From NCBI GenBank assembly GCA_005893225.1, contig VBOT01000029.1:1-59954 (forward strand): DNA of 59,954 nucleotides, given 5' to 3'. Shown here piece by piece: positions 1 to 55,641 of the stretch. The translations under genes were made by a program, and so were the position numbers. Source of the stretch: Candidatus Eiseniibacteriota bacterium (GTDB taxonomy: Bacteria; Eisenbacteria; RBG-16-71-46). Within the stretch, counting starts at the first letter, position 1, and each line of letters opens with the position of its first letter. The notes under the pieces are model-generated. The model was not told the DNA's origin, made no database searches, and was given only the letters and a program-made list of their open reading frames with translations.

Positions 1-92
1 CTCACACTTCGACCGGCTCGGCGTTCCTCGCCTGGCCGGCCGCTGAACCATCGAACCGCCGGATGCGGACCCGCATGTCCGGTGGTGTGGGA

Positions 93-122
93 GGGGGTTA
101 GCGGGACGAACCCGCTACCCCC
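93..122 (-). terminator. GC-rich hairpin downstream of the histidine phosphatase gene (possible terminator)
   Basis: The inverted repeat gggggttagcggg / cccgctaccccc has a 5-nt loop and lies about 30 nt past the stop at 154. No clear U-tract follows it. Confidence 0.3.
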
Positions 123-153
123 TATCCCGATCTAACCCGACCATGAAGAGGGG

Positions 154-7211: not shown

Positions 7212-9019
7212 CAGCGTCGGACCCGCAGCTCGTCCAGCGGCCGCACCTCCCCGCCGCGGATCACGTAGCGGATCCGCCGCAGGTTCGCGACCCCGGCCAG
7301 CGGGTCGGCGGCGACCACCAACAGGTCCGCCGCCTTCCCCGGCTGTACGGTCCCGAACTCGTCGAGCTTCCCCATCGCCAGCGCCCCGCCCCGCGTCGAG
7401 GCCACGATCACCGCCATCGGGGAGAGACCGGCCGCCTGCATGGCTTCCATCTCCGCGTGGACCGACAGTCCGTGCAAGGTGAGCGGGTTTCCCGCGTCGG
7501 TTCCCATCGCGATCGGGATCCCCGCCCTGTGGACCCGGACGAGGTTCGCCGCCATGATGCCCCGCAACTGGGCCAGCCCCGAGGGGTCCGCGCCCCGCGA
7601 CGGATCGAGCCGCCCGGCGCCGACCGCCGGAGTGCTCGCGATGTGCGCGAGGGTCAGGGAGTCCACGCAGCCCAGGGGATCGTCGATCGCGGGCGGCTTG
7701 CCGGTCCGGACCGATTCGTACACGCGAGCGTAGCCGTCGGCCACCGTCAGGGTCGGGCAGTAGATGGCGTGGCCGGCACGCGCGAGACGGATGAACTCCT
7801 CGTCCACCGGCCGGTCCCACACGCTGTGCACGAGCACCTTCGCCCCCGCCCGGAGCGCCGCCTTGGCCTCGCGAAGTCCGGTGGCGTGAACGATGAGCGG
7901 GAGCCCCGAACGCCGCGCTTCGTCTCCCGCCGCGGCCACCGCGCGGGCCATCTCGTCGAAGTCGCGACCCGGCGCGATGATGAACCACACCTTGACGGCC
8001 GCCGACCCCAGAGACTCGAGATAACGCACGCCGTCGCGCGCCACGGCCTCGTCCTTCAAGTAGATGAACTGCCGCTCGGCGGGAAGGTTGAGCCAGAAGT
8101 CGAGGGTCGAAAGCAGCGGGCCCGCGGCCGCCACGTGCGGGGCGCGCGGGTCCCCTCGGGCCTGGCGCTGCATCGCCACCGTCCACGGGTAGCCGCCGAC
8201 GTCGAACACCGCCGTCACGCCCGAGCACAGATAGCTCCTGAACCAGGTTTCCGGATGCGAGCGCAGGCGCTCCTCGACCTGCTCGTAGGGGTAGACGTCG
8301 CGGGCATCGAGGGCGTCGGGCCGGCCGTCGACCCAGCCGGTCTGCGAGAAGTGGACGTGGGCGTCGACCAGGCCGGGCGTGATCCAGAGGCCGCCGAGGT
8401 CGAGCGTGTCCACTCCCGCCGGCACGCGGCACCGGGTGCGCGGCCCGGCGCATTCGATCTTCCCGTCGCGCAGCACCACCACCGCGTCGCGGACCGGGGG
8501 CTTCCCGGTGCCGTCGATGAGCGTGGCGCCGACCAGGGCCCGGGGCGGAGGCGGCGTCCCGGGAGGCGCCGGAAACGCGGTGGTGACGGCGATCCGCCAG
8601 CCGCGCGGCGTGCTCACGAACAGGCGCTCCGAGAGCCCCGACTGCTCGTCCTCTCCGTAACGCACGCGGTAGCGATAGGTCCCGTAGACGATGCCCTCGC
8701 GGACCGGGGCGAGCTTCAGGTCCGAGGCGTCGAAGAAGTCCGGCCAGTCGTTGGCGCCGGTACGATCGGCCAGATCCTTGAAGCCGAGCCTGAACCCCAC
8801 GGGCCCGGTGCGGGCCAGGGAATCCGACTCGAGGTAGCAGGCGAGATAGGCGGCTCGGTCCCGGCGGCGGATCGCATCCAGGTTGGTCCGAAAGAGCGCC
8901 CGCGCGGCGCCGAGGTCGGGGCTCTGGCGCTCGACGCCCCGGGCGGCGGTGGGTGGAGCGGCGAGCACGCCGATCCCCACGACCAGCAGGCCCCGTTCGA
9001 ACGCCGTTCGAAGGTTCAT
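7211..9019 (-). CDS. Secreted amidohydrolase with an N-terminal NTF2/SnoaL-like domain
   Basis: The protein has a signal-like N-terminus and a metal-binding VDAHVHF motif. LIVHATG and MGTDAGN motifs typical of the imidazolonepropionase/prolidase-like amidohydrolase superfamily follow. Both ends overlap their neighbours by 1-4 nt. Confidence 0.85.
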   Translation of the reverse strand: MNLRTAFERGLLVVGIGVLAAPPTAARGVERQSPDLGAARALFRTNLDAIRRRDRAAYLACYLESDSLARTGPVGFRLGFKDLADRTGANDWPDFFDASDLKLAPVREGIVYGTYRYRVRYGEDEQSGLSERLFVSTPRGWRIAVTTAFPAPPGTPPPPRALVGATLIDGTGKPPVRDAVVVLRDGKIECAGPRTRCRVPAGVDTLDLGGLWITPGLVDAHVHFSQTGWVDGRPDALDARDVYPYEQVEERLRSHPETWFRSYLCSGVTAVFDVGGYPWTVAMQRQARGDPRAPHVAAAGPLLSTLDFWLNLPAERQFIYLKDEAVARDGVRYLESLGSAAVKVWFIIAPGRDFDEMARAVAAAGDEARRSGLPLIVHATGLREAKAALRAGAKVLVHSVWDRPVDEEFIRLARAGHAIYCPTLTVADGYARVYESVRTGKPPAIDDPLGCVDSLTLAHIASTPAVGAGRLDPSRGADPSGLAQLRGIMAANLVRVHRAGIPIAMGTDAGNPLTLHGLSVHAEMEAMQAAGLSPMAVIVASTRGGALAMGKLDEFGTVQPGKAADLLVVAADPLAGVANLRRIRYVIRGGEVRPLDELRVRR

Positions 9020-12968: not shown

Positions 12969-13171
12969 GCTCTCGAGGGCGTTTCGTCTGATCTCCGCGC
13001 CCCCGCGGATGGTACGCCTGATGCACCACGCTTTCTCACCCGCCCCGTGCTCGGCAGATCGTTTTCTCCCTGGATCCACCAGCGCAGACGCACCGAGCGC
13101 GAAACTCGATCCGCGACCGCTAGTCGTTCGGATTCGATCGATGCTTGCGAGATCTGGCTTCCACACGCCCG

Positions 13172-16100
13172 ATGCCCGAGCACCGCTCGCCCGAGCGAGG
13201 AGCGGCGACTCCAGACCGGAGGCTCGTGGTGTTCGTCGGCGTGGCTCGCCAGGGGGCGTGGGCGAGCGTGTGCGCTCTGCTCGCGCTGCTCGCACCCCTC
13301 CCCGCGCATGCGGTGACCGTTCCTCCGGGCTTCGTGGTCGAGAACGCGGTTCCCGGATTCGGCTTCAACGCGCCCGTCGCGGTGGCGTTCCTCCCGGATG
13401 GCCGCTGGCTCGTGGCCGAGCGGCGCGGCCGCGTCTTCATCGTCCAGAACGGCGTGAAGAACCCGACCCCCCTGATCAACATCGAGGCCGAGGTGCTGTA
13501 TCGCGAGGATCGCGGGCTGATGTCGCTCGCCGTCGATCCCGACTTCAGGACCAATCGCTCGATCTATCTCCTCTACACCGTGGATCCCGACAGCAACGGC
13601 GTCGACGACAACGACGACGCGTTCGCCCGCCTCACGCGCTACCAGGTGAGCGCCTCCGACCCGGGCACGATCGATCCGGCCTCGCGAACCGTGCTGATCG
13701 GAAAGAGCTGGCACGAGGGGATCCCCTCCGGCTCGCCGTCGCACACCGCGGGGGCGCTGCGCTGGGGGGCCGACCGGAGCCTCCTCATCTCGGCGGGCGA
13801 CGGGGCGCAGTTCAGCCAGATGGATGCCGGGGGTCTCGACCCGGGGCTGTTCGGCCCCGACCGGACCGACCCGGACCAGGACATCGGGGCGTTCCGCGCG
13901 CAGCACCTCGGAAGCCTGGCGGGCAAGATCCTGCGCATCGATCCCCTGACCGGCGAGGGCTACCCGAGCAATCCGTTCTACGACGGCGATCCGCGCTCCA
14001 ATCGCTCGCGAGTGTGGGCGTACGGCCTCCGCAACCCGTTCCGCTTCACGGTCCGGCCGGGCACCGGCAGCACCGACCCGGCCGCGGGCAACCCCGGCTC
14101 ACTCTACGTCTCCGACGTCGGCTGGCGGACCTGGGAGGAATGTAACGTCGCCTCGAGCGGCGGCAAGAACTTCGGCTGGCCGTGCTACGAAGGCCCCGCC
14201 GCGTCGACTGCCTATCAGACCGCCGCGCCGGCTCGTCAGGGATGCGCCTCGATCGGCACCGCCGACAATCCCGGTGTCCTGACCGCGCCGCTCATCACTT
14301 ACCATCACAGCGTCCCATCGCTGAGCCAGCCTCAGGGCATCACCGGAAACGCCGCCACTGGAGGGGTCTTCTACACCGACAGCCTCTATCCGGCCTACTA
14401 CCGACAGCGCTATTTCCTCTGCGACTACGGAGCGAACTGGATCAAGGTCGCGGCCTTGGATGCCGGCGACCATCTGGTCTCACTCGATCCGTTCGCGGCC
14501 GGCGCCGACGGCCCGGTCGACATCGCCACCGACCCGCAGACCGGCGACGTCCTCTACATCTCGATCATGACCGGCGAGCTGCGCCGCATCCGCTACACCG
14601 GACCGACCGGCAACGCGCCGCCGGTGGTGGCGGCGGCGGCCACCCCGACCTCCGGGGCCGCGCCGCTCGGGGTCCAGTTCTCGAGCGCCGGGAGCTTCGA
14701 TCCCGACAACGACCCGCTCTCGTTCGGCTGGAGCTTCGGCGACGGAGAGGGATCGATCGCCGCCAGCCCCTCCCATTCCTTCGCCACTCCCGGCGTCTAT
14801 CACCCGGTGCTCACCGTGACCGACGGGCGCGGCGGGCTGAGCCGCGACACGCTCGAGATCACGGTGCTCCCGAGCGTGGGCTTCCCCTCCACCGGGATCC
14901 TCGACGACTTCAACCGGCCCGGCGCCGCGCTTGGGGCGCCGTGGGTCGGACAGACCTCCGGACTCGCGATCGACCAGAATCAGCTGGTCCAGAGCTCGGG
15001 CGCCTACGTCTCGCCGGTCTGGGGCGGCGGCGTCTTCGGTCCCGACCAGGAGGCCTTCGTCACCCTCGATGCCCTGACGAGTAGTTCGCCCGAGCACGAC
15101 CTGATGCTCAAGATCCAGGGCGAGTCCTGGAACGCCGGGAACATCAAGGTCGACTATGACGCCCGGTACGGCACGGTCTACGTGAAGACCTATACGCCCG
15201 GAGTCGGCTGGCAGAGCTACCCGGGGTCGATCCCGGTCGCGTTCCAGGCGCACGACGTATTCGGGGCTCGGGCGCTCTCGAGCGGCGACGTCGAGATCTA
15301 CCGGAACGGCGTCAAGCTCGGTACCCTCTCGGTGCGCGGCTGGCCTTACGCCTCGCAGGGAGGCAGGGTCGGCCTGCTGCTCGGGAGCGCGCTCACCTCC
15401 CGGCTCGACAACTTCGGAGGGGGAAACGTCGTCTTCCCCTCCAACGCCCCTCCCGAAGCCCGTATCGTCTCGCCGCTCGATCGCGCCTTCTTCGCGGCGG
15501 GCGACACGGTGCGGCTCGTCGGCTCGGCCAGCGACGCCGAGGACCCGGCGTCGAGCCTGCTCTTCCAATGGGAAGTCGACATCCACCACAACAACCACAT
15601 CCATCCCGACAGCTACGTGTTCGACGGGCCGAGCGCCGCCTTCGAGTTCGAGAACCACGACGACGGGACCGGCGTTCACATCGAGATCCGCCTCATCGTG
15701 ACCGACACTGGTGGCCAGAGGGACACCGCGGCCGTCGACGTCTATCCCGAGGTCGACCTCGAGCCCGGCCCGGTCTCGACTCTCGCGGACCCGGTAGGGG
15801 CGGGTAGCGCGACCGAATATCGATTCAAGATCTTCAACCGCGGCCGCATGCCGGCGCCGATCTCGCGCTGGCAGCTCACGGCCGGCGGCGTGACACTGGC
15901 CGCGGGCGACACGCTCGTCGCGGCGCGGGACAGCGTCACGATCGTGCGCAGCCTGGCAGCGCCCCTGGCCCCGGGGGCTTACACCCTGCGCGCCACGGTG
16001 GACGCGCTCGCGCAGGTGATGGAGACCCACGAGGCCAACAACGCCTGGAACGGCACGCTCACCGTCGCCGGCCCGCCGGGCCCACCGGCCGGCCGGTTCC

Positions 16101-16993
16101 CGACCACGCCCGTGCTCGACGACTTCAACCGTCCCAACGCCCCGCTGGGCGCACCCTGGATCGGACTGACCTCGGGCCTCATCCTCGACCAGGACCAGAT
16201 GGTTCAGGGCTCCGGCACCTACGCGTCGCCGGTGTGGGGCGGCTTGGCGTTCGGGCCCGACCAGGAAGCCTTCGTCACGCTGGATGCGATCACTCCGGGA
16301 GCGCCGGAGCACGACCTCATGCTCAAGATCCAGGGCGCGTCGTGGAACGCCGGTCACGTGAAGGCGATCTACGACGACACGTACAAGAAGGTCTACGTGA
16401 TGACCTACACGCCGGGAGTCGGCTGGCAGAGCTATCCCGGCTCGATCCCCGTGACGTTCTCGGCCCATGACGTGTTCGGCGCCCGGGCCCTGTCGACCAG
16501 CGACATCCAGATCTATCGCAACGGCCTCAGGCTCGGGACCCTCTCGGTGCGTGGCTGGCCCTACGCCGCCCTGGGAGGAAGGATCGGCCTCCTGCTCGGC
16601 AATGCCGCGCTGAGCCGTCTCGACAACTTCGGCGGCGGAACCGTGACGCGCCGGCCGGCCGGGGGCGGCACGGCCTCGGTCCCCGAGGTCGTCCCCGATC
16701 CCTTCGGCGGCCCCATTCCAGGGACACTCTCTCTCTCGAGCCCGTTCCCGAACCCGAGCCCGGGCGGCGTGTCGCTGAGGCTCGACCTGCCGCGGGCGGC
16801 GAGAGTCGAGATGAGCGTGTACGACGTCTCCGGCCGCTCGCTGGAGCAGCGGACATCGGACTACCGGCCCGGGCGCTGGACGCTCAAGTGGAGCAGGGCG
16901 AGCGGCGGCGCGCCGGCCCCTCCCGGCCTCTACTTCGCGCGGGTTCGCGCTGGCTCGCGGGTCTTCGAGCGTCGCTTCGTGCTGCTGCAGTGA
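13172..16993 (+). CDS. Large secreted multidomain protein: PQQ/GSDH-type beta-propeller, PKD, two copies of an unassigned jelly-roll-like domain, Ig-like, CARDB-like, T9SS-type C-terminal domain
   Basis: The N-terminus is glucose/sorbosone-dehydrogenase-like (PGFVVENAV...AFLPDGRWLVAERRGRVFIV...GLMSLAVDPDF). A PKD domain follows (FSSAGSFDPDNDPLSFGWSFGDG). The C-terminus is a FlgD-Ig/T9SS sorting domain (FPNPSPGG...VYDVSGR...GLYFARV). The start is uncertain: TTG 13145 or ATG 13172. An RR-containing signal region is present. Confidence 0.85.
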   Translation: MPEHRSPERGAATPDRRLVVFVGVARQGAWASVCALLALLAPLPAHAVTVPPGFVVENAVPGFGFNAPVAVAFLPDGRWLVAERRGRVFIVQNGVKNPTPLINIEAEVLYREDRGLMSLAVDPDFRTNRSIYLLYTVDPDSNGVDDNDDAFARLTRYQVSASDPGTIDPASRTVLIGKSWHEGIPSGSPSHTAGALRWGADRSLLISAGDGAQFSQMDAGGLDPGLFGPDRTDPDQDIGAFRAQHLGSLAGKILRIDPLTGEGYPSNPFYDGDPRSNRSRVWAYGLRNPFRFTVRPGTGSTDPAAGNPGSLYVSDVGWRTWEECNVASSGGKNFGWPCYEGPAASTAYQTAAPARQGCASIGTADNPGVLTAPLITYHHSVPSLSQPQGITGNAATGGVFYTDSLYPAYYRQRYFLCDYGANWIKVAALDAGDHLVSLDPFAAGADGPVDIATDPQTGDVLYISIMTGELRRIRYTGPTGNAPPVVAAAATPTSGAAPLGVQFSSAGSFDPDNDPLSFGWSFGDGEGSIAASPSHSFATPGVYHPVLTVTDGRGGLSRDTLEITVLPSVGFPSTGILDDFNRPGAALGAPWVGQTSGLAIDQNQLVQSSGAYVSPVWGGGVFGPDQEAFVTLDALTSSSPEHDLMLKIQGESWNAGNIKVDYDARYGTVYVKTYTPGVGWQSYPGSIPVAFQAHDVFGARALSSGDVEIYRNGVKLGTLSVRGWPYASQGGRVGLLLGSALTSRLDNFGGGNVVFPSNAPPEARIVSPLDRAFFAAGDTVRLVGSASDAEDPASSLLFQWEVDIHHNNHIHPDSYVFDGPSAAFEFENHDDGTGVHIEIRLIVTDTGGQRDTAAVDVYPEVDLEPGPVSTLADPVGAGSATEYRFKIFNRGRMPAPISRWQLTAGGVTLAAGDTLVAARDSVTIVRSLAAPLAPGAYTLRATVDALAQVMETHEANNAWNGTLTVAGPPGPPAGRFPTTPVLDDFNRPNAPLGAPWIGLTSGLILDQDQMVQGSGTYASPVWGGLAFGPDQEAFVTLDAITPGAPEHDLMLKIQGASWNAGHVKAIYDDTYKKVYVMTYTPGVGWQSYPGSIPVTFSAHDVFGARALSTSDIQIYRNGLRLGTLSVRGWPYAALGGRIGLLLGNAALSRLDNFGGGTVTRRPAGGGTASVPEVVPDPFGGPIPGTLSLSSPFPNPSPGGVSLRLDLPRAARVEMSVYDVSGRSLEQRTSDYRPGRWTLKWSRASGGAPAPPGLYFARVRAGSRVFERRFVLLQ
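14882..15430 (+). repeat. Intragenic domain repeat, copy 1 (about 183 aa)
   Basis: The sequence LDDFNRPGAALGAPWVGQTSGL...FGPDQEAFVTLDA...EHDLMLKIQGESWNAG...TYTPGVGWQSYPGSIPV...LSVRGWPYA...SRLDNFGGG is colinear with copy 2. Confidence 0.8.
16094..16645 (+). repeat. Intragenic domain repeat, copy 2 (about 184 aa)
   Basis: The sequence LDDFNRPNAPLGAPWIGLTSGL...FGPDQEAFVTLDA...EHDLMLKIQGASWNAG...TYTPGVGWQSYPGSIPV...LSVRGWPYA...SRLDNFGGG matches copy 1. By eye roughly three quarters of residues are identical. Confidence 0.8.
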
Positions 16994-17929: not shown

Positions 17930-17947
17930 CTCCGGCCCTCTGAACGG

Positions 17948-40945: not shown

Positions 40946-41022
40946 TGGAGCGGAAGACGGGATTTGAACCCGCGACAACCACCTTGGCAAGGTGGGGCTC
41001 TACCGGGCTGAGCTACTTCCGC
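40946..41022 (-). tRNA. tRNA-Gly (anticodon GCC), CCA encoded
   Basis: The cloverleaf GCGGAAG-TA-GCTC-AGCCCGGTA-GAGC-C-CCACC-TTGCCAA-GGTGG-TTGTC-GCGGG-TTCAAAT-CCCGT-CTTCCGC-TCCA was folded by hand. Confidence 0.9.
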
Positions 41023-41035
41023 TGAACGGGGACGG

Positions 41036-41065
41036 ACTATATCCAGGCCCCCGAATGAGCGTCAA
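41036..41065 (-). promoter_or_regulatory. Candidate promoter of tRNA-Gly (and possibly folE)
   Basis: The minus-sense sequence is TTGACG-N18-TATAGT. The -10 hexamer ends 13 nt before the mature tRNA 5-prime end. Confidence 0.45.
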
Positions 41066-41078
41066 GGAGTGGCGCGGT

Positions 41079-41107
41079 TTGGCACCCGCGCCGGCAGCCT
41101 CTATAAG
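41079..41107 (+). promoter_or_regulatory. Candidate promoter of aspartate kinase (would give a leaderless or near-leaderless mRNA)
   Basis: The sequence is TTGGCA-N17-TATAAG. The -10 hexamer ends 7 nt before the ATG at 41115, and there is no Shine-Dalgarno sequence. Confidence 0.4.
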
Positions 41108-41114
41108 TCCCTGG

Positions 41115-42314
41115 ATGCCCCTTCTGGTCCAGAAGTACGGCGGCACGTCGGTGGACGGCCCGGCTCGCATCCGCGCCGTGGCCGAGCGCGTGGCGGCCGC
41201 CCACCGCGCCGGTAATCCCACGGTCGTCGTCGTCTCGGCGATGGGCCAGACCACCGACGAGCTCCAGTCGCTGGCCCGCCAGGTCTCGGCTCGCCCACAC
41301 CCGCGCGAGCTGGACATGCTGCTCACCGCCGGGGAGCGCGTGGCCATGGCATTGCTGGCGATGGCGCTCCACGACCTCGGGGTCGAGGCGATTTCGTTCA
41401 CCGGCTCGCAGAGCGGTATCTTGACCGACGGGGCGCACAGCGCGGCGCGCATCGTGGCGGTCAAGCCGGAGCGGATCCTCGCCGAGCTCGAGCGCGGGCG
41501 CGTGGTGATCGTCGCCGGCTTCCAGGGGGTGAACCCCGAGACCAAGGAGATCACCACGCTGGGACGCGGCGGCTCGGACACCACGGCGGTGGCGCTCGCC
41601 GCCTCGCTGGGCACCGGGCGCTGCGAGATCTACACCGACGTGGGCGGGGTCTGCACCGCGGACCCGCGAATGGTGCCCGGGGCGCGGGTGCTCCCGCGCC
41701 TCTCGTACCGGCTGTGCTCGACCCTCGCCCACCTGGGAGGCCGGGTGCTCCACGCGCGCTGCGTCGACCTCGCGGCCGCGAACGGGGTGCCGCTCACGGT
41801 GCGCTCGTCGTTCGACGAGGAGCCCGGGACGTCGATCGGAGGAGAGGAGATGGAGCGGGCGCGCGTCCAGGCGGTGACCCACCGGGACCAGGTCTCGATC
41901 GCGATCGCCGAGGGCACCGCCGGGGGCCGCGGCGAGGCCCGCGGGATCATCGAGGCGGTGGCCCGGGCGTTCCCCGAGCTCGAGCTGATCGCCCACGAGC
42001 AGGCCACCGACGCGCACGGCGCGATCGTGTGGATCGGAACCCGCTCCGACGCCGAGGCGCTGCGCCGCGGCTTCCGCGACCTCAGGGGACCCGGCGGCGA
42101 GTGGAAGCTCCAGGTGGACGACGGCGCGGCGTTCGTCTCGGTGGTGGGGCTCGGCCTCGGCGCGCAGGAGACGGTGCGGGCCGAGCAGGCCCTCGAGCGC
42201 GCCGGGGTCCCGCTGGTCGCGCTCCGGACCACGCCGACGGCTCTGATCTTCCGCGTCCCGGGCGAGCGATGCGCGGCCGCCGTGCAGGCGCTGCACGCCG
42301 CGTTTCTGGAATAG
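41115..42314 (+). CDS. lysC: Aspartate kinase
   Basis: The sequence has [24 protein letters not shown] and [13 protein letters not shown] motifs, followed by C-terminal ACT-like repeats. Confidence 0.9.
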
Positions 42315-42481
42315 CAGCCGAAGCCCGGGTCGGGACGCCCAAGGGCTTCTGCGAGACTCTCGCAGCGCGCGGAGGCAGGAGTCGGAGCGCGCGTCGCGAG
42401 TCAGCGAGCCGGGGACAGGATGTCGGAGGCCGCGGGTCTCGCAAGAGGCCCTTGGGCGTCCCGAGCCGGGGTTGCGGCTGC
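42314..42481 (+). repeat. Rod-like palindromic intergenic element, copy A (REP/MITE-like or structured RNA)
   Basis: The element fills the whole convergent lysC/glgA gap. Its long arms (gggacgcccaagggc...gcccttgggcgtccc) flank a 91-nt core (42352-42442). That core matches the reverse complement of 54139..54229 with about 4 mismatches by eye. Confidence 0.8.
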
Positions 42482-42484
42482 CCG

Positions 42485-44017
42485 TCAGATCATCGAGCGG
42501 GCGGCTTCGAGAGTGATCGCCCGGCCGGAAGCGACCCGCTCGCGAGCCTCCTCGTACAGCTCGTCGTAGCGATCGGCGCTCTTCCGCCACGAGAAGTCGT
42601 GGCTCATCCCGTTCCGCTGCAGCGTCCGCCACAGCGCCGGCTGGCGGTGGATCGCCAGCGCGCGGCGAAGCGCGCCGATCATCTCGTCGGGATCGAAGCG
42701 CTGGAACAGGAAACCCGTGCCCTGACCGGTGAGCGGGTCGAACTCCTCGACGGTGTCCGCCAGCCCTCCCACCGCGCGGACCACCGGGGGCGTACCGTAG
42801 CGCAGACTGTACATCTGGTTCAGGCCGCATGGCTCGTAGCGCGACGGCATGAGGAACAGGTTGCAGCCGCCCTCGATCCCGTGCGCGAACGCCTCGTCGT
42901 GCGCGGCGCGGTAATGGAATCGCTCCGGATGGTCGACCGCCAAGCGGCGGAGCAAATCCTGGTAGCGCGGCTGGCCGGTGCCGAGAAGCACGAAGCGAGC
43001 CTCGAGTCGAACCAGGTCCTGGCGCGCCTGCTCGATCAGATCGAAGCCCTTCTGCTCGGTGAGCCGGGAGATCATCCCGATCAGCGGCCACGAGGGCTCC
43101 CTCGGGAACCCGCACTCGCGCGCCAAGAGCCGCGTGTTCATCAGCTTCTTCTCGATCTCGGCGAGATCGTAGCGATGGGGAAGGTGAGCGTCTCGCGCCG
43201 GGTCCCACTCGCCGTCGTCGATGCCGTTCAGGATCCCGCGCAGATCGTCCCCGCGGCGGGCCAGCACGCCCTCGAGGCCGCAGCCGAACTCCCCGCTCGA
43301 CTGGATCTCCTGCGCGTAGCGGGGGCTCACGGTCGAGATCATGTCGGCGAACACGAGCCCGACCTTCATGTAGTTCACGCGACCCCAGTATTCGAACGGG
43401 CCGGAAGGATAGAACAGCTCAATTCCGATCCCGACCAGCCCCAGCACCCACGGGTCGTGAATTCCCTGGTAGCCGAGGTTGTGCACGGTGAACACGGTCG
43501 CCGTGTCGCGGAACGCCTGAACGCAGGGTTCGTGGGTGCGGGCCAGGCACAGGGCCCACGCCGCCTGATGGTCGTGGCCGTGGAGGATGTCGATGGGCTC
43601 GCCGAGCCGTGTGAGGCCCTCCAGCGCCGCGCGCGCGAAGAACAGGAACCGCTCGGCGTTGTCGGCGTAGCCCTGGCCGCTCTTGGGGTCGTCGTAGACG
43701 CCGGGCCGGTCGAAGAACTGCCGCTCGCCGGCGTGGCCCACGAGCAGGACCCGGGGGCCGGCCTCCGGGACGCACAGCTCGAAGCTCGCCGGCTCGCGGC
43801 CCATCCCCCACGGAACCCCGCCATCCTCCAGCGTCCGCCGCTGCCATTCGTGGGGAACCTGCAAGGTCCGGTAGGCAGGAATCGCCACCGTGACCCGATG
43901 GCCCCGGCGAGCCTGCTCGGAGCTCAGCGCCCCGACCACGTCGGCGAGCCCCCCGACCTTGACGAGCGGGCCCATCTCGCTCGCCAGGTGGGCGATCGAC
44001 CAGCGCCTCCCGCTCAT
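42485..44017 (-). CDS. glgA: Glycogen (starch) synthase
   Basis: The N-terminal KVGGLADVVGAL motif is present and the sequence is GT5 family-like throughout. Confidence 0.9.
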   Translation of the reverse strand: MSGRRWSIAHLASEMGPLVKVGGLADVVGALSSEQARRGHRVTVAIPAYRTLQVPHEWQRRTLEDGGVPWGMGREPASFELCVPEAGPRVLLVGHAGERQFFDRPGVYDDPKSGQGYADNAERFLFFARAALEGLTRLGEPIDILHGHDHQAAWALCLARTHEPCVQAFRDTATVFTVHNLGYQGIHDPWVLGLVGIGIELFYPSGPFEYWGRVNYMKVGLVFADMISTVSPRYAQEIQSSGEFGCGLEGVLARRGDDLRGILNGIDDGEWDPARDAHLPHRYDLAEIEKKLMNTRLLARECGFPREPSWPLIGMISRLTEQKGFDLIEQARQDLVRLEARFVLLGTGQPRYQDLLRRLAVDHPERFHYRAAHDEAFAHGIEGGCNLFLMPSRYEPCGLNQMYSLRYGTPPVVRAVGGLADTVEEFDPLTGQGTGFLFQRFDPDEMIGALRRALAIHRQPALWRTLQRNGMSHDFSWRKSADRYDELYEEARERVASGRAITLEAARSMI

Positions 44018-52875: not shown

Positions 52876-54087
52876 ATGAGCGTGCGTGGCGCGCTCGACC
52901 CGCTGGCCTCGCGCGGCGGGTCGCCGGTCCGCGAGTCCTTTCTGCCGCTCGCGGTGCCGTCGATCGGCGAGCGAGAGAAGCAGCTCGTCCTCGAAACCCT
53001 CGATTCGGGCTGGATCACGACCGGGCCCAAGACCCACGAGCTCGGGGCCAGGATCGCCTCGCTCACGGGAGCACGGCACGGCGTCGCCGTCAACTCCGCG
53101 ACGGCGGCGCTCCACCTCGGCCTCGTGGCGCTGGGTGTCCGGCCCGGCGACGAGATCGTGACCTCGACCTACACGTTCGCTGCGTGCGTCAACGTCATGG
53201 AGCATCTGGGCGCCCGGCCGGTGCTGGTGGACGTCGAGCCCGACACGCTGTGCATGGATCCGGCGCGGCTCGAGGCGTCGATCACGCCGCGCACGCGCGC
53301 CGTGATGCCGGTGGATTACGGCGGCCACCCCTGCGACCTCGACGCCATCGCCGCGATCGGGAGCCGTCACGGCCTCCCGATCGTCGAGGACGCCGCCCAC
53401 GCGCTCGGCGCGCGCTGGAAGGGCCACCCGGTCGGCTCGTTCTCCACCGTGACGGCCTTCTCCTTCTACGCCACCAAGAACCTCACCACCGGCGAGGGAG
53501 GCGCCGCCGTCACCGACGACGGGGAGCTGGCCGAGCGCATCTCGCTGCTCTCGCTGCACGGCATGAACCGGGACGCCTGGAAGCGCTACACCGACACCGG
53601 CTCCTGGTACTACGAGATCACCGCGCCTGGATTCAAGTACAACCTGAGCGACGTGCTGGCGGCGATCGGGCTCGGGCAACTCGAGCGCTTCGAGGAGATG
53701 CAGCGCCGGCGCGCCGAGCACGCGGCCCGGTACCAGGCCCTTCTCGAGGACGTGCCCGAGGTGCGGCGCCCGCGCACCCGCGCCGACGCGCTCCACGCCT
53801 GGCACCTCTATCCGATCGCGCTCGAGCTGGAGCGGCTGACCTGCGACCGGGCCCGGTTCATCCAGGAGCTGCGGGCGGAGAACATCGGCTCCTCGGTCCA
53901 CTTCATTCCCATCCACCTCCACCCGCATTTCCGCGCCACGCTCCCCTATCGCGAGGGCGACTTCCCGGTCGCCGAGGACGCCTACCGCCGCGCCGTCTCG
54001 CTGCCGCTCTTCCCAGGCATGAGCCCGCGGGACGTGGAGGACGTGTGCGCCGCGGTGCGCAAGGTGGCGGGGCACTACCGGCGATAG
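52876..54087 (+). CDS. DegT/DnrJ/EryC1/StrS-family sugar aminotransferase
   Basis: The sequence has LAVPSIGEREKQLV, NSATAALHL and DAAHALGA motifs. FSFYATKNLTTGEGG carries the PLP lysine. Confidence 0.9.
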   Translation: MSVRGALDPLASRGGSPVRESFLPLAVPSIGEREKQLVLETLDSGWITTGPKTHELGARIASLTGARHGVAVNSATAALHLGLVALGVRPGDEIVTSTYTFAACVNVMEHLGARPVLVDVEPDTLCMDPARLEASITPRTRAVMPVDYGGHPCDLDAIAAIGSRHGLPIVEDAAHALGARWKGHPVGSFSTVTAFSFYATKNLTTGEGGAAVTDDGELAERISLLSLHGMNRDAWKRYTDTGSWYYEITAPGFKYNLSDVLAAIGLGQLERFEEMQRRRAEHAARYQALLEDVPEVRRPRTRADALHAWHLYPIALELERLTCDRARFIQELRAENIGSSVHFIPIHLHPHFRATLPYREGDFPVAEDAYRRAVSLPLFPGMSPRDVEDVCAAVRKVAGHYRR

Positions 54088-54095
54088 CCAGGGTC

Positions 54096-54268
54096 GGGCT
54101 GCTGAGAACGCCCGATGGAGGACACCCGAGGGCCTCCGCGAGACCCGCGGCCTCCGACATCCTGTCTCCGGCTCGCTGACTCGCGACACGCGCTCCGGCT
54201 CCTCCTCCGCGCGCTGCGAGAGTCTCGTTACGGCCCTCGGGTGTCCTCCATCGGGCGTCTTCGACAGC
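54096..54268 (-). repeat. Rod-like palindromic intergenic element, copy B (inverted relative to copy A)
   Basis: The element fills the convergent gap between the aminotransferase and the UPF0104-like gene. It has perfect 27-bp arms (acgcccgatggaggacacccgagggcc / ggccctcgggtgtcctccatcgggcgt). The core is near-identical to copy A on the opposite strand. Confidence 0.8.
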
Positions 54269-54271
54269 CTG

Positions 54272-55276
54272 TCAGGTCACGCTCTCGCGAGCCTCTCCCA
54301 GCGATCGCAGCGTGAGTCCCTCGCGCCGCAAGTAGTAGAGCCCCACCAGCGAGACCGGCAGCCACTGCCCGGCCCAGTAGAACCACGAGAACGGCACCGC
54401 CCGCTCCTTGCCGACGGAGAACAGCGCCAGCCCCGCGACGCACGCCAGGTTCAGGGTCCCGACGTAGCCGGGGGCGGCCGGCACCATGATGCCGATCGCG
54501 GTGATCACGAGCATGATCAGCCCCCCGTACCACGGCACGCCGAGGCCCAGAGCCCACATCCCGACCTGGAGGCCCATCGCGAAGGCCAGGAACATGACGA
54601 ACGACAGCAGGAACACCCACAGCAGGCGCGGCAGGTCGCGGAACAGCCCGAGCCCTTCCACGAACTGCTGGAGCGCCTGCACCGCGCGGCGGCCGAAGCG
54701 CTCGGGCAGCGGCCGGGTGATCTTATCGACCAGGATGCCCAGCAGTCGCGGGCTGCGCTCGATCGCCACCAGGAAAGCGGTGAGGCCCACGCAGCTCAGC
54801 ACCAGCAGCCCCGCGCCGGCGCTGGTGAGGCGCCCCGCCTCGGTGCTCGCCGAGATTGGGTGGAGCAGCAGCGCGACGCCGAAGATCGCGAGCAGCGTGA
54901 TCATGTCCACCACGCGCTCGACCACCACGGTGGCGAACACCGTGGTCTTCGACAGGTTCTCGCGCCGGCCGAGCGCCCAGGCGCGCACGAACTCGCCGAC
55001 TCTCAGCGGAAACAGGTTGTTCGCCATGAACCCGATCATGGTCGCGCTGTAGAGGCTGTCGAGGCTCACCGGCCGGGGAGTGGAGAGCAGCCAGCGCCAG
55101 CGGAACGCCCGGATCCAGAACCCCAGCAGGGTCAGCCCCATCAAGGCGATGAACCCGCGGTAGTCGGCGCGCCGGAGGGCGTCCCACACCTCGGCCGGAC
55201 GCACCTCGCGCATCGCCCACCACACGCACGCCGCGGAGATGACGGTGCCGACGACGAGCTTGATCCTCGCGCTCAC
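54272..55276 (-). CDS. UPF0104 / lysylphosphatidylglycerol-synthase-TM-region-like (flippase-like) membrane protein
   Basis: The 334 aa contain about 8 TM segments and a RAFRWRWLL...NLFPLRVGEFVRA motif. The GTG start overlaps the TGA of the DUF2304 gene. Confidence 0.78.
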   Translation of the reverse strand: MSARIKLVVGTVISAACVWWAMREVRPAEVWDALRRADYRGFIALMGLTLLGFWIRAFRWRWLLSTPRPVSLDSLYSATMIGFMANNLFPLRVGEFVRAWALGRRENLSKTTVFATVVVERVVDMITLLAIFGVALLLHPISASTEAGRLTSAGAGLLVLSCVGLTAFLVAIERSPRLLGILVDKITRPLPERFGRRAVQALQQFVEGLGLFRDLPRLLWVFLLSFVMFLAFAMGLQVGMWALGLGVPWYGGLIMLVITAIGIMVPAAPGYVGTLNLACVAGLALFSVGKERAVPFSWFYWAGQWLPVSLVGLYYLRREGLTLRSLGEARESVT

Positions 55277-55641
55277 GCCCCCTCTCCCGGCCCGCCCCCT
55301 CGCTCGACCTCGTGCCTCAGCAGCGCCAGCTCGCGGACCACGATCTGGTGCTCCACGGTGAGCCGTGACAGCTTCACCGAAAGGTAGAGCAGCACCGCCA
55401 CGGCGAACGCCAGGCCGACGGCGAACACGGTCGAGCTCTCGAACAGCATTCCGAGAATGCGCGTGATGAGCCGGAGGAGCGGCGTGGAGAAGCCGAGCGC
55501 GGCGATCACGACGCTGGCAGCCATCCACAGCACCGAGAATTCCTCGCCCAGCCGGCGCCGGCGCACCAGCTCCAGAACGAACACCGCCAGACCGACCGCC
55601 GCGAGGGCGACGATGATCTGGGTACGAGAGATGAATTCCAC
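55273..55641 (-). CDS. DUF2304-like small membrane protein
   Basis: The 122 aa contain 3 TM segments followed by a helical tail. AAGGAAGG lies upstream of the GTG start. This family is a typical partner of GT2 genes. Confidence 0.7.
   Translation of the reverse strand: MEFISRTQIIVALAAVGLAVFVLELVRRRRLGEEFSVLWMAASVVIAALGFSTPLLRLITRILGMLFESSTVFAVGLAFAVAVLLYLSVKLSRLTVEHQIVVRELALLRHEVERGGGPGEGA

Follow-up and report, generated by a model that had tools for sequence, protein, structure and literature searches.

The window analysed here, a 59,954-nucleotide stretch of DNA from Candidatus Eiseniibacteriota bacterium (contig VBOT01000029.1), carries two copies, A and B, of a long rod-like palindromic element that belongs to a real, previously undescribed repeat family. 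A preliminary description, made from the sequence alone, had proposed that a hairpin fills the convergent gap between a lysC-like gene and glgA and that a second copy lies on the opposite strand in an unrelated convergent gap; coordinates and RNA folds bear out both proposals. Copy A spans the interval between the TAG stop codon of the lysC-like gene (42312-42314) and the glgA stop codon (42485-42487, TCA on the + strand), and the first base of the rod is the final base of the aspartate kinase stop codon. Copy B, at 54097-54269 (-), likewise runs from stop to stop between converging genes, which are unrelated to those that flank copy A. The 'forward' strand of the element corresponds to the + strand of the window in copy A and to the - strand in copy B. 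The features of the two copies and their neighbours are as follows.

Two palindromic rods between converging genes

42314-42481 (+): copy A, whole rod, 168 nt, delimited by extension of arm pairing and by folds
42338-42456 (+): counterpart in copy A of the ~118-nt repeat unit, from alignment, with limits CCCAAGGGC / GCCCTTGGG where the family consensus is CCCGAGGGCC / GGCCCTCGGG
42353-42440 (+): conserved centre of copy A, 88 nt, from the fold; a 9-bp closing stem (GAGACUC../..GGGUCUC) with hairpins P2 and P3
42360-42399 (+): hairpin P2 of the copy A centre, from the fold
42404-42433 (+): hairpin P3 of the copy A centre, from the fold, with apex GACA-GGA-UGUC
42332-42473 (+): 142-nt segment of copy A, ending in ...GGGGTT, that one contig of run X2 lacks; this may be an element-free or deleted allele
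54097-54269 (-): copy B, whole rod, 173 nt
54125-54242 (-): 118-nt unit of copy B, delimited by depth, with a perfect 10-bp terminal inverted repeat CCCGAGGGCC/GGCCCTCGGG
54140-54226 (-): conserved centre of copy B, 87 nt, from alignment
40992-42314 (+): left neighbour of copy A, aspartate kinase-like gene (AA_kinase, lysC-like)
42485-44017 (-): right neighbour of copy A, glycogen/starch synthase GlgA (Glyco_transf_5 + Glycos_transf_1)
52876-54087 (+): neighbour of copy B, DegT/DnrJ/EryC1-family aminotransferase, stop codon 54085-54087
54272-55528 (-): neighbour of copy B, LPG_synthase_TM-family membrane protein, stop codon 54272-54274

Copy A folds as a single long imperfect hairpin, with a minimum free energy of -131.4 kcal/mol on the + strand (z = -9.7, with none of 200 shuffles as good) and of -114.7 kcal/mol on the - strand (z = -8.9). 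In copy B the two arms (54097-54149 and 54217-54269) match each other at 81% in the repeat search. The same search aligned the two copies over 42377-42442 / 54138-54203 (95% over 66 nt) and over 42320-42375 / 54204-54259 (77%), and a 20-mer and a 29-mer from the centre each occur twice in the window where 0.08 and 0.00 occurrences, respectively, are expected. By pairwise alignment the two centres (~88 nt) are only 3 substitutions and 1 indel apart; the outer arms are also homologous, yet have diverged with compensating changes.

A dispersed family with filled and element-free alleles

When the centre 20-mer was searched for in JGI metagenome contigs, 32 stretches were recovered, of which 30 are true copies, representing ~19 distinct loci with unrelated flanks. 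The remaining two (L020 and L023) match by chance in coding DNA and were not retained as copies. Depth profiles, obtained by mapping Logan contigs of six soil metagenomes onto four different copies, gave ~4-15x in the flanks and 40-350x in the centre, a 10-60x excess, with dozens of different sequences entering or leaving the element. At copy B, depth jumps from ~5x to 100-330x exactly at 54125-54242, and loose contig ends begin at 54124-54126 and 54239-54242. The 91-nt core put forward in the preliminary description as the repeated unit therefore needs enlarging: its near-identity holds for the centre, but the unit delimited by depth is 118 nt long, and the arms outside it are homologous as well. 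The element is a dispersed family present in tens of copies per genome equivalent, as anticipated by the earlier suggestion of a dispersed REP/BIME-like repeat or miniature inverted-repeat transposable element (MITE), which is upheld by the ~19 loci with unrelated flanks, the depth excess and the presence/absence alleles described below. The same description had held that the existence of only these two copies, with neither covariation support nor transcript ends, would point to a local duplication, with no family behind it. Just two copies are indeed present in the 60-kb window, but the loci found elsewhere, together with the large depth excess and the unrelated flanks, refute this explanation, to which we attach practically no probability.

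Searches of sequenced genomes returned no members of the family. The exact centre 20-mer had no match in 185,579 species-representative genomes (GTDB), a degenerate two-gap pattern had none among GTDB representative genomes, and there were no matches in viral contigs or, by blastn, in plasmids. When 16 Eisenbacteria loci around glgA, from metagenome-assembled genomes (MAGs), were searched with nhmmer and a covariance model, no copies were found, the only match being a generic palindrome in L008 (E 0.14). An identical GlgA protein is encoded on two ENA soil-metagenome contigs, and since its closest relatives in the 185,579 GTDB species genomes are those of Candidatus Eisenbacteria MAGs (63-70% identity), the host is probably, judging from sequence, an uncultured soil bacterium of the Eisenbacteria lineage that has no represented genome.

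Three polymorphisms in the mapped contigs concern the presence or absence of the element. At locus L045, a 283-nt contig from run X2 joins position 1757 to 1909 with no mismatches, so that 151 nt are absent. The two sides of the joint have a single nucleotide in common, hence no target duplication; the filled allele is found in runs X3, X5 and X7. The absent segment comprises the centre unit plus 15-19 nt of arm per side beyond the 118-nt unit, and its left boundary is the GTGAA terminus common to other copies. The element-free allele is a small perfect hairpin with a 7-bp stem and a 4-nt loop, the stem of which is the outermost part of the rod. At L031, a contig from a strain diverged by ~8% lacks 550-709, and homology restarts exactly after ...CCGGTT. 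The third case is copy A itself, where one contig of run X2 joins 42331 to 42474. This joint (depth 3, a 29-nt side, 1 nt shared) is the weakest of the three; X2 contigs also break at 42332 and 42474. The 'empty' form of copy A retains GCAGCCG...CGGCTGC and shows one oddity, in that GAGCCGGGGTT, which has been lost, is the complement of AAGCCCGGGTC, which has been kept. GGTT directly precedes the right boundary in all three events, and target duplication is either lacking or at most 1 nt. The bases 5' of the element are GGTC in copy A, CACG in L045 and TGAC, ATCG and ACGC in type-2 copies, these being few cases with uncertain ends. In the same contig mapping no element-free alleles were seen at copy B, L029 or L026, and the joints at L036 were all imprecise and derived from diverged homologues. 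Orthologous glgA/lysC-type convergent junctions in three Eisenbacteria MAGs are ~10-25 nt long and have no hairpin. Inverted duplication of the target on insertion, an idea prompted by the locus-specific appearance of the arms, proved unneeded at L045, given that arm types recur and that the L045 empty site is itself palindromic; copy A, with the complementarity just described, stays odd in this respect.

In run X7, the L031 allele carries a 9-base addition (CTCAGCAGC) at 709/710, immediately past its GGTT end. Copy B (window 54256-54269) and L033 have this motif as their outermost arm, which hints that an outer GCTGCTGAG/CTCAGCAGC layer may be present or absent independently.

Element length varies from ~140 to 230 bp across the family, and decayed forms are present, namely the L046 stub (~1235-1300), which has an internal deletion, L033, which is truncated, L039, which is partly duplicated in tandem, and L041 (11216-11391), which belongs to a diverged subfamily; such decay products are typical of mobile palindromes. 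The stub, which is also seen in L050, is a centre-less 65-nt hairpin, GTGAATCGAGGGGGGAAGGC...GGCCTTCCCCCGATTCAC, ~35 nt upstream of a full copy, with a loop that keeps 15 nt of the end of the centre (CTCCGCGAGACCCGC); it looks like an internally deleted element, hence two elements in one intergenic gap. The L041 relative lies on the - strand of the same contig as a standard copy (covariance model score 46 bits, E 8e-7); closing stem (GCGAGAC...GGGTCTCGC) and two-hairpin layout are unchanged, there is an extra 5' hairpin, and the arms resemble the L046 stub, which indicates an older subfamily. At L029 (3414-3458), contigs of runs X1, X2 and X10 join unrelated sequence (...GGTCTCCATCGAA) to the right 45 nt only, that is, to the 3' half of P3, the closing stem and the inverted repeat; this piece may be a right end on its own or, conceivably, the terminus of a longer element, perhaps an autonomous one. 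Many contigs end within the element (for example L021, L035, L043, L047, L048 and L050), and L034 (1522-1720), in which the left flank of one locus is fused to the right arm of the L045 locus, looks chimeric.

Structure, conservation and genomic context

The 88-nt centre folds as a three-way junction formed by the 9-bp closing stem and hairpins P2 and P3, which are direct repeats of each other (23 of 30 positions match, a level reached by 0.6% of shuffles). Outward of the centre lies a conserved purine-rich internal loop (GUA/GGA), followed by the 10-bp inverted repeat, and the repeat unit, common to nearly all copies and 118 nt long in copy B, has sharp edges at CCCGAGGGCC...GGCCCTCGGG. Among ~17 copies the centre is 95-100% identical. 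Beyond the inverted repeat the arms vary from copy to copy, yet the two arms of each copy still pair; L045 has Watson-Crick pairs at 38 of 41 arm positions, the outermost 36 being unbroken. Covariation in the 17-copy alignment is correspondingly uneven. In the arms, 16 of 21 pairs have changed on both sides, a score that none of 500 shuffles reached and that collapses in slid controls, against 2 of 30 pairs in the centre, where departures are otherwise uncompensated, as at the P3 apex of L024, of L022/L043 and of L045/L042/L033. The arms fall into recurring types (GTGAATCGAGGG... and GCTGCTGAGAACGCCCGA...) seen at different loci, and the same arms occur with different centre variants, L043 combining the centre of L022 with the arms of L019. 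The preliminary description had attributed the near-identity of the cores to recent spread or strong constraint; the first of these, or homogenisation between copies, better explains the near-identical centres than does structural constraint.

The possibility that the centre is kept by function in a structured RNA gene or a cis-regulatory RNA (a small RNA, ribozyme or protein-binding RNA), which had also been raised previously, draws on this same identity, on the defined three-way junction with its conserved adjoining GUA/GGA loop, and on the fact that the forward strand folds better in every copy. However, the forward-strand advantage stems from the shared centre, since mismatch oppositions in the arms (27 G.T versus 18 A.C) do not differ significantly and there is thus no G.U bias; strand asymmetry was accordingly rejected as independent evidence for an RNA. 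No relevant family was matched at the element in Rfam, either at gathering score or at E <= 10, the top matches by E-value (mir-8932, 18 bits with a cut-off of 50, and S15-Halobacteria, 13 bits) being due to chance. No promoter-like site was found at copies A and B, the element occurs in both orientations relative to neighbouring genes, several copies carry disruptive changes in P3, and an RNA gene would not usually be present in tens of copies per genome. Because the centre lacks covariation, there is no orientation bias, and copies with truncations or internal deletions have survived, we consider a dedicated RNA gene unlikely and would be greatly surprised if this reading proved correct.

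The contrast between centre and arms could alternatively arise if only the ~88-118-nt centre were mobile and inserted at the apex of existing palindromes or terminator hairpins, the outer arms being the old target. The L045 empty allele, a perfect hairpin whose 7 bp are the outermost rod, and the GCAGCCG...CGGCTGC kept in the empty form of copy A are as this explanation would have it, as are the occurrence of the same arms with different centre variants (L043, L019 and L022) and the sharp end of the depth excess at CCCGAGGGCC/GGCCCTCGGG. Yet the segment gained or lost at L045 includes arm sequence on each side of the 118-nt unit, and the recurrence of arm types at different loci implies that arms travel too. 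Moreover, an old terminator cannot account for the 41-nt arms of the copy in an in-frame coding linker (see below), the orthologous junction lacks a hairpin in related MAGs, and centre-less arm palindromes were absent from the window and were represented elsewhere by one deletion stub only, a looser scan of all loci yielding noise. We therefore regard insertion of the centre alone into pre-existing hairpins as doubtful.

Fifteen copies could be classified by genomic context: nine are convergent, five tandem and one intragenic and in frame, and none is divergent. The neighbours are unrelated housekeeping genes, the rods sit 0-25 nt from stop codons, and in the tandem pairs the element's forward strand is co-oriented with the genes twice and opposed to them three times. 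The intragenic copy (L036, ~8075-8246, with the element on the - strand; the same locus is present in L030) lies inside an 810-aa open frame that encodes a rifampin-phosphotransferase/PEP-synthase-like protein, with PPDK_N at residues 1-182 and PEP-utilizers at 732-801. The ATP-grasp match to the Listeria rifampin phosphotransferase stops at ...QARPITTL, exactly at the rod edge, and the element is translated in frame, without stops, as a ~57-aa insert in the linker after the ATP-grasp domain.

This distribution bears on the third role envisaged in the preliminary description, that of a selected bidirectional terminator or mRNA 3'-end stabiliser, in which the rod would form in both transcripts and stop RNA polymerase or block 3' exonucleases, activities that have been proposed for REP/BIME and ERIC sequences. 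The convergent location of 9 of the 15 classifiable copies and of the element at two of the three convergent junctions in the window, the closeness of rods to stop codons, the very stable folds on both strands and the survival of arm pairing through changes of arm sequence all suit such a role, and two metatranscriptome contigs overlap the centre of two other copies. These contigs, at a depth of ~2.5-2.9, are unstranded and possibly reflect DNA carry-over. On the other hand, there is no U-tract or canonical signature (no terminator-like sites on either strand of copies A and B), and the third convergent junction of the window (17930-17947, 18 nt, CTCCGGCCCTCTGAACGG) carries neither element nor hairpin. 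Given this junction and the orthologous MAG junctions without a hairpin, the organism needs none between converging genes there. Element-free alleles coexist in nature, one copy lies within a coding region, and an asymmetric conserved centre is superfluous for a terminator. An activity as bidirectional terminator or mRNA stabiliser is possible, in that the genomic position agrees with it, but a U-tract is lacking and the RNA data are too sparse to decide; as the reason for the existence of the family we consider it improbable, though worth keeping in mind.

Some other features of the window were also noted. A tRNA-Gly (GCC) gene (40946-41022, - strand) lies immediately upstream of, and divergent from, the aspartate kinase gene. 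Since the longest lysC open reading frame (ORF; GTG 40992) overlaps this tRNA, translation probably begins further downstream; in ENA the gene is called with a product of 419 aa. The Rfam model Intron_gpII (group II intron domains V/VI), whose gathering score is 40, matches 54-131 (+) with 42.2 bits, and the remainder of the intron and its reverse transcriptase would lie upstream, outside the window. Two 300-nt direct repeats (14882-15181 and 16097-16396; 76% identity, 1215 nt apart) within a ~1290-aa ORF (13124-16993) point to a putative internal domain duplication in a large protein.

A probable mobile palindrome and its relation to known systems

We favour, with a probability of roughly 0.7, the interpretation that the element is a non-autonomous, REPIN/MITE-like mobile palindromic repeat of a new family, which survives where it is harmless. 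The lack of target duplication, the constant right-end signal and the presence of two similar hairpins on the same strand together point to hairpin-recognising single-strand transposition of the kind carried out in the REPIN/RAYT and IS200/IS605 systems. In such a scheme a trans-acting transposase would mobilise the unit, most plausibly by recognising single-stranded DNA hairpins as those systems do. Copies would then persist at harmless sites, overwhelmingly within the few bases between converging stop codons, in some cases behind a gene of a tandem pair and in one case in an in-frame inter-domain linker. The arms may stay self-complementary because mobility requires the hairpin or because correction at the DNA level restores it, rather than for the sake of a specific RNA, and any termination or 3'-end-protecting effect on both converging mRNAs would be a by-product. 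A terminator or RNA-stabilising side effect of this sort is possible.

Several observations weigh against a mobile palindrome of this type. Mobilisation in trans is something that we infer, and no transposase was found in the fragments covered; half-copies beside a transposase were likewise absent from ~510 kb of loci, in which ORFs were not scanned exhaustively for transposases. Enrichment at convergent junctions would be equally expected under selection as a terminator. The three left boundaries are non-equivalent and the bases 5' of them differ, a poor fit to a fixed target of the IS200/IS605 type. The empty alleles come from assembled contigs (Logan) rather than raw reads, and insertion, excision and deletion are indistinguishable in them; in copy A the joint rests on 29 nt on one side. 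Conservation is reversed with respect to REPINs and classical MITEs, the centre being kept and the ends variable, and the divergence of the arms beside a ~97%-identical centre is not explained by mobility as such. The latter contrast could stem from copies exchanging their centres, from the capture of target palindromes or from palindrome correction at the DNA level.

A more speculative extension, to which we assign only small odds, is that the centre is the single-strand recognition module of an as yet undescribed hairpin-specific Eisenbacteria transposase (Y1/HUH or other) and that rods grow in layers by stacking. The cut would be set by structure and the short right-end signal GGTT, not by fixed termini; landing would be preferred in the middle of short palindromes between converging genes, and successive moves would carry or stack local palindromic DNA. 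If true, this would explain the constant centre, the inner arms shared within subfamilies and the locus-specific yet perfectly paired outermost arms, and it would represent a mode of repeat evolution undescribed for REPINs or MITEs and a route to 'super-hairpins' at gene ends.

To our knowledge the Eisenbacteria have no cultured members, and none of the papers searched mentions both Eisenbacteria and transposable elements. The family offers a first handle on within-genome mobile DNA in this phylum, with natural filled and empty alleles visible in public metagenomes. A conserved centre flanked by variable self-complementary ends inverts the usual rule for miniature elements and could shed light on what hairpin-recognising transposases take as substrate and on the persistence and growth of long palindromes in bacterial genomes. 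In practical terms, the repeat fragments and chimerises metagenome assemblies of the lineage, as in L034, and it may be useful for telling strains apart. Should the rods also act as terminators or stabilisers of converging transcripts, selfish DNA would be supplying 3'-end structure in a high-G+C organism without U-tract terminators.

Among known systems, REPINs are hairpins with compensatory changes that leave asymmetric excision footprints (PMC3116915). The present family resembles the REPIN/RAYT system, in which RAYTs are Y1 transposases (Bertels & Rainey, 2011; PMC3116915), in its extragenic location, its tens or more copies per genome and its non-autonomous selfish behaviour. Further likenesses are the single long hairpin with compensatory changes (here in 16 of 21 arm pairs) and the loss of entire units, with boundaries that are asymmetric and without target duplication, for which the evidence here is at contig level only. 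In REPINs, however, the terminal REP 16-25-mers are conserved and mutually inverted and the spacer is variable, whereas here the central 88-118 nt are conserved, the internal hairpins are direct repeats and the ends vary. The present elements are also longer (140-230 nt as opposed to ~70-110 nt) and occur in a different host phylum. No RAYT gene (PF01797), which in the REPIN system is single-copy and flanked by the repeats, was identified in the fragments.

Elements of the IS200/IS605 group are excised with precision in single-stranded form, carry a hairpin at either end of one strand and cause no duplication (PMC3201880, PMC5027513). With these and their miniature derivatives (PATEs; 'peel and paste') the family shares two similar same-strand hairpins, the absence of target duplication, precise boundaries, a constant GGTT at the right cleavage point and an asymmetric excised segment. 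It differs in that the hairpins are central, 40-60 nt from the ends, rather than subterminal, that no constant tetra- or pentanucleotide precedes the left end in the few cases seen, and that the whole element forms a rod, which IS200/IS605 ends do not; there is no TnpA or TnpB nearby. Because of the inverted pattern of conservation, the central hairpins, the apparent lack of a fixed left target and the lack of a known transposase, membership of either group is not established. With classical MITEs derived from DDE elements the family has in common an inverted repeat (CCCGAGGGCC), but the joints show a 1-nt overlap in place of a target duplication of fixed length.

ERIC (or IRU) sequences, 127-bp imperfect palindromes of enterobacteria, and the Correia elements of Neisseria are comparable in several respects, being 100-160 bp long, dispersed, intergenic and co-transcribed, with proposed effects on mRNA stability or termination and with presence or absence varying among strains. 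Correia elements have conserved 26-bp terminal inverted repeats and a TA duplication, unlike the variable outer arms and the duplication of at most 1 nt seen here. Rickettsia palindromic elements are in-frame protein-coding insertions and in this respect recall the L036/L030 copy, although an in-frame insertion is exceptional in the present family (1 of ~17 copies). We know of no sequence similarity between the element and ERIC, Correia or Rickettsia palindromic elements. Finally, intrinsic (Rho-independent) terminators are likewise G+C-rich hairpins placed straight after stop codons between converging genes, but the stem here is 5-10 times longer, has a branched centre and no U-tract, and belongs to a repeated family whose centre is near-identical from copy to copy.

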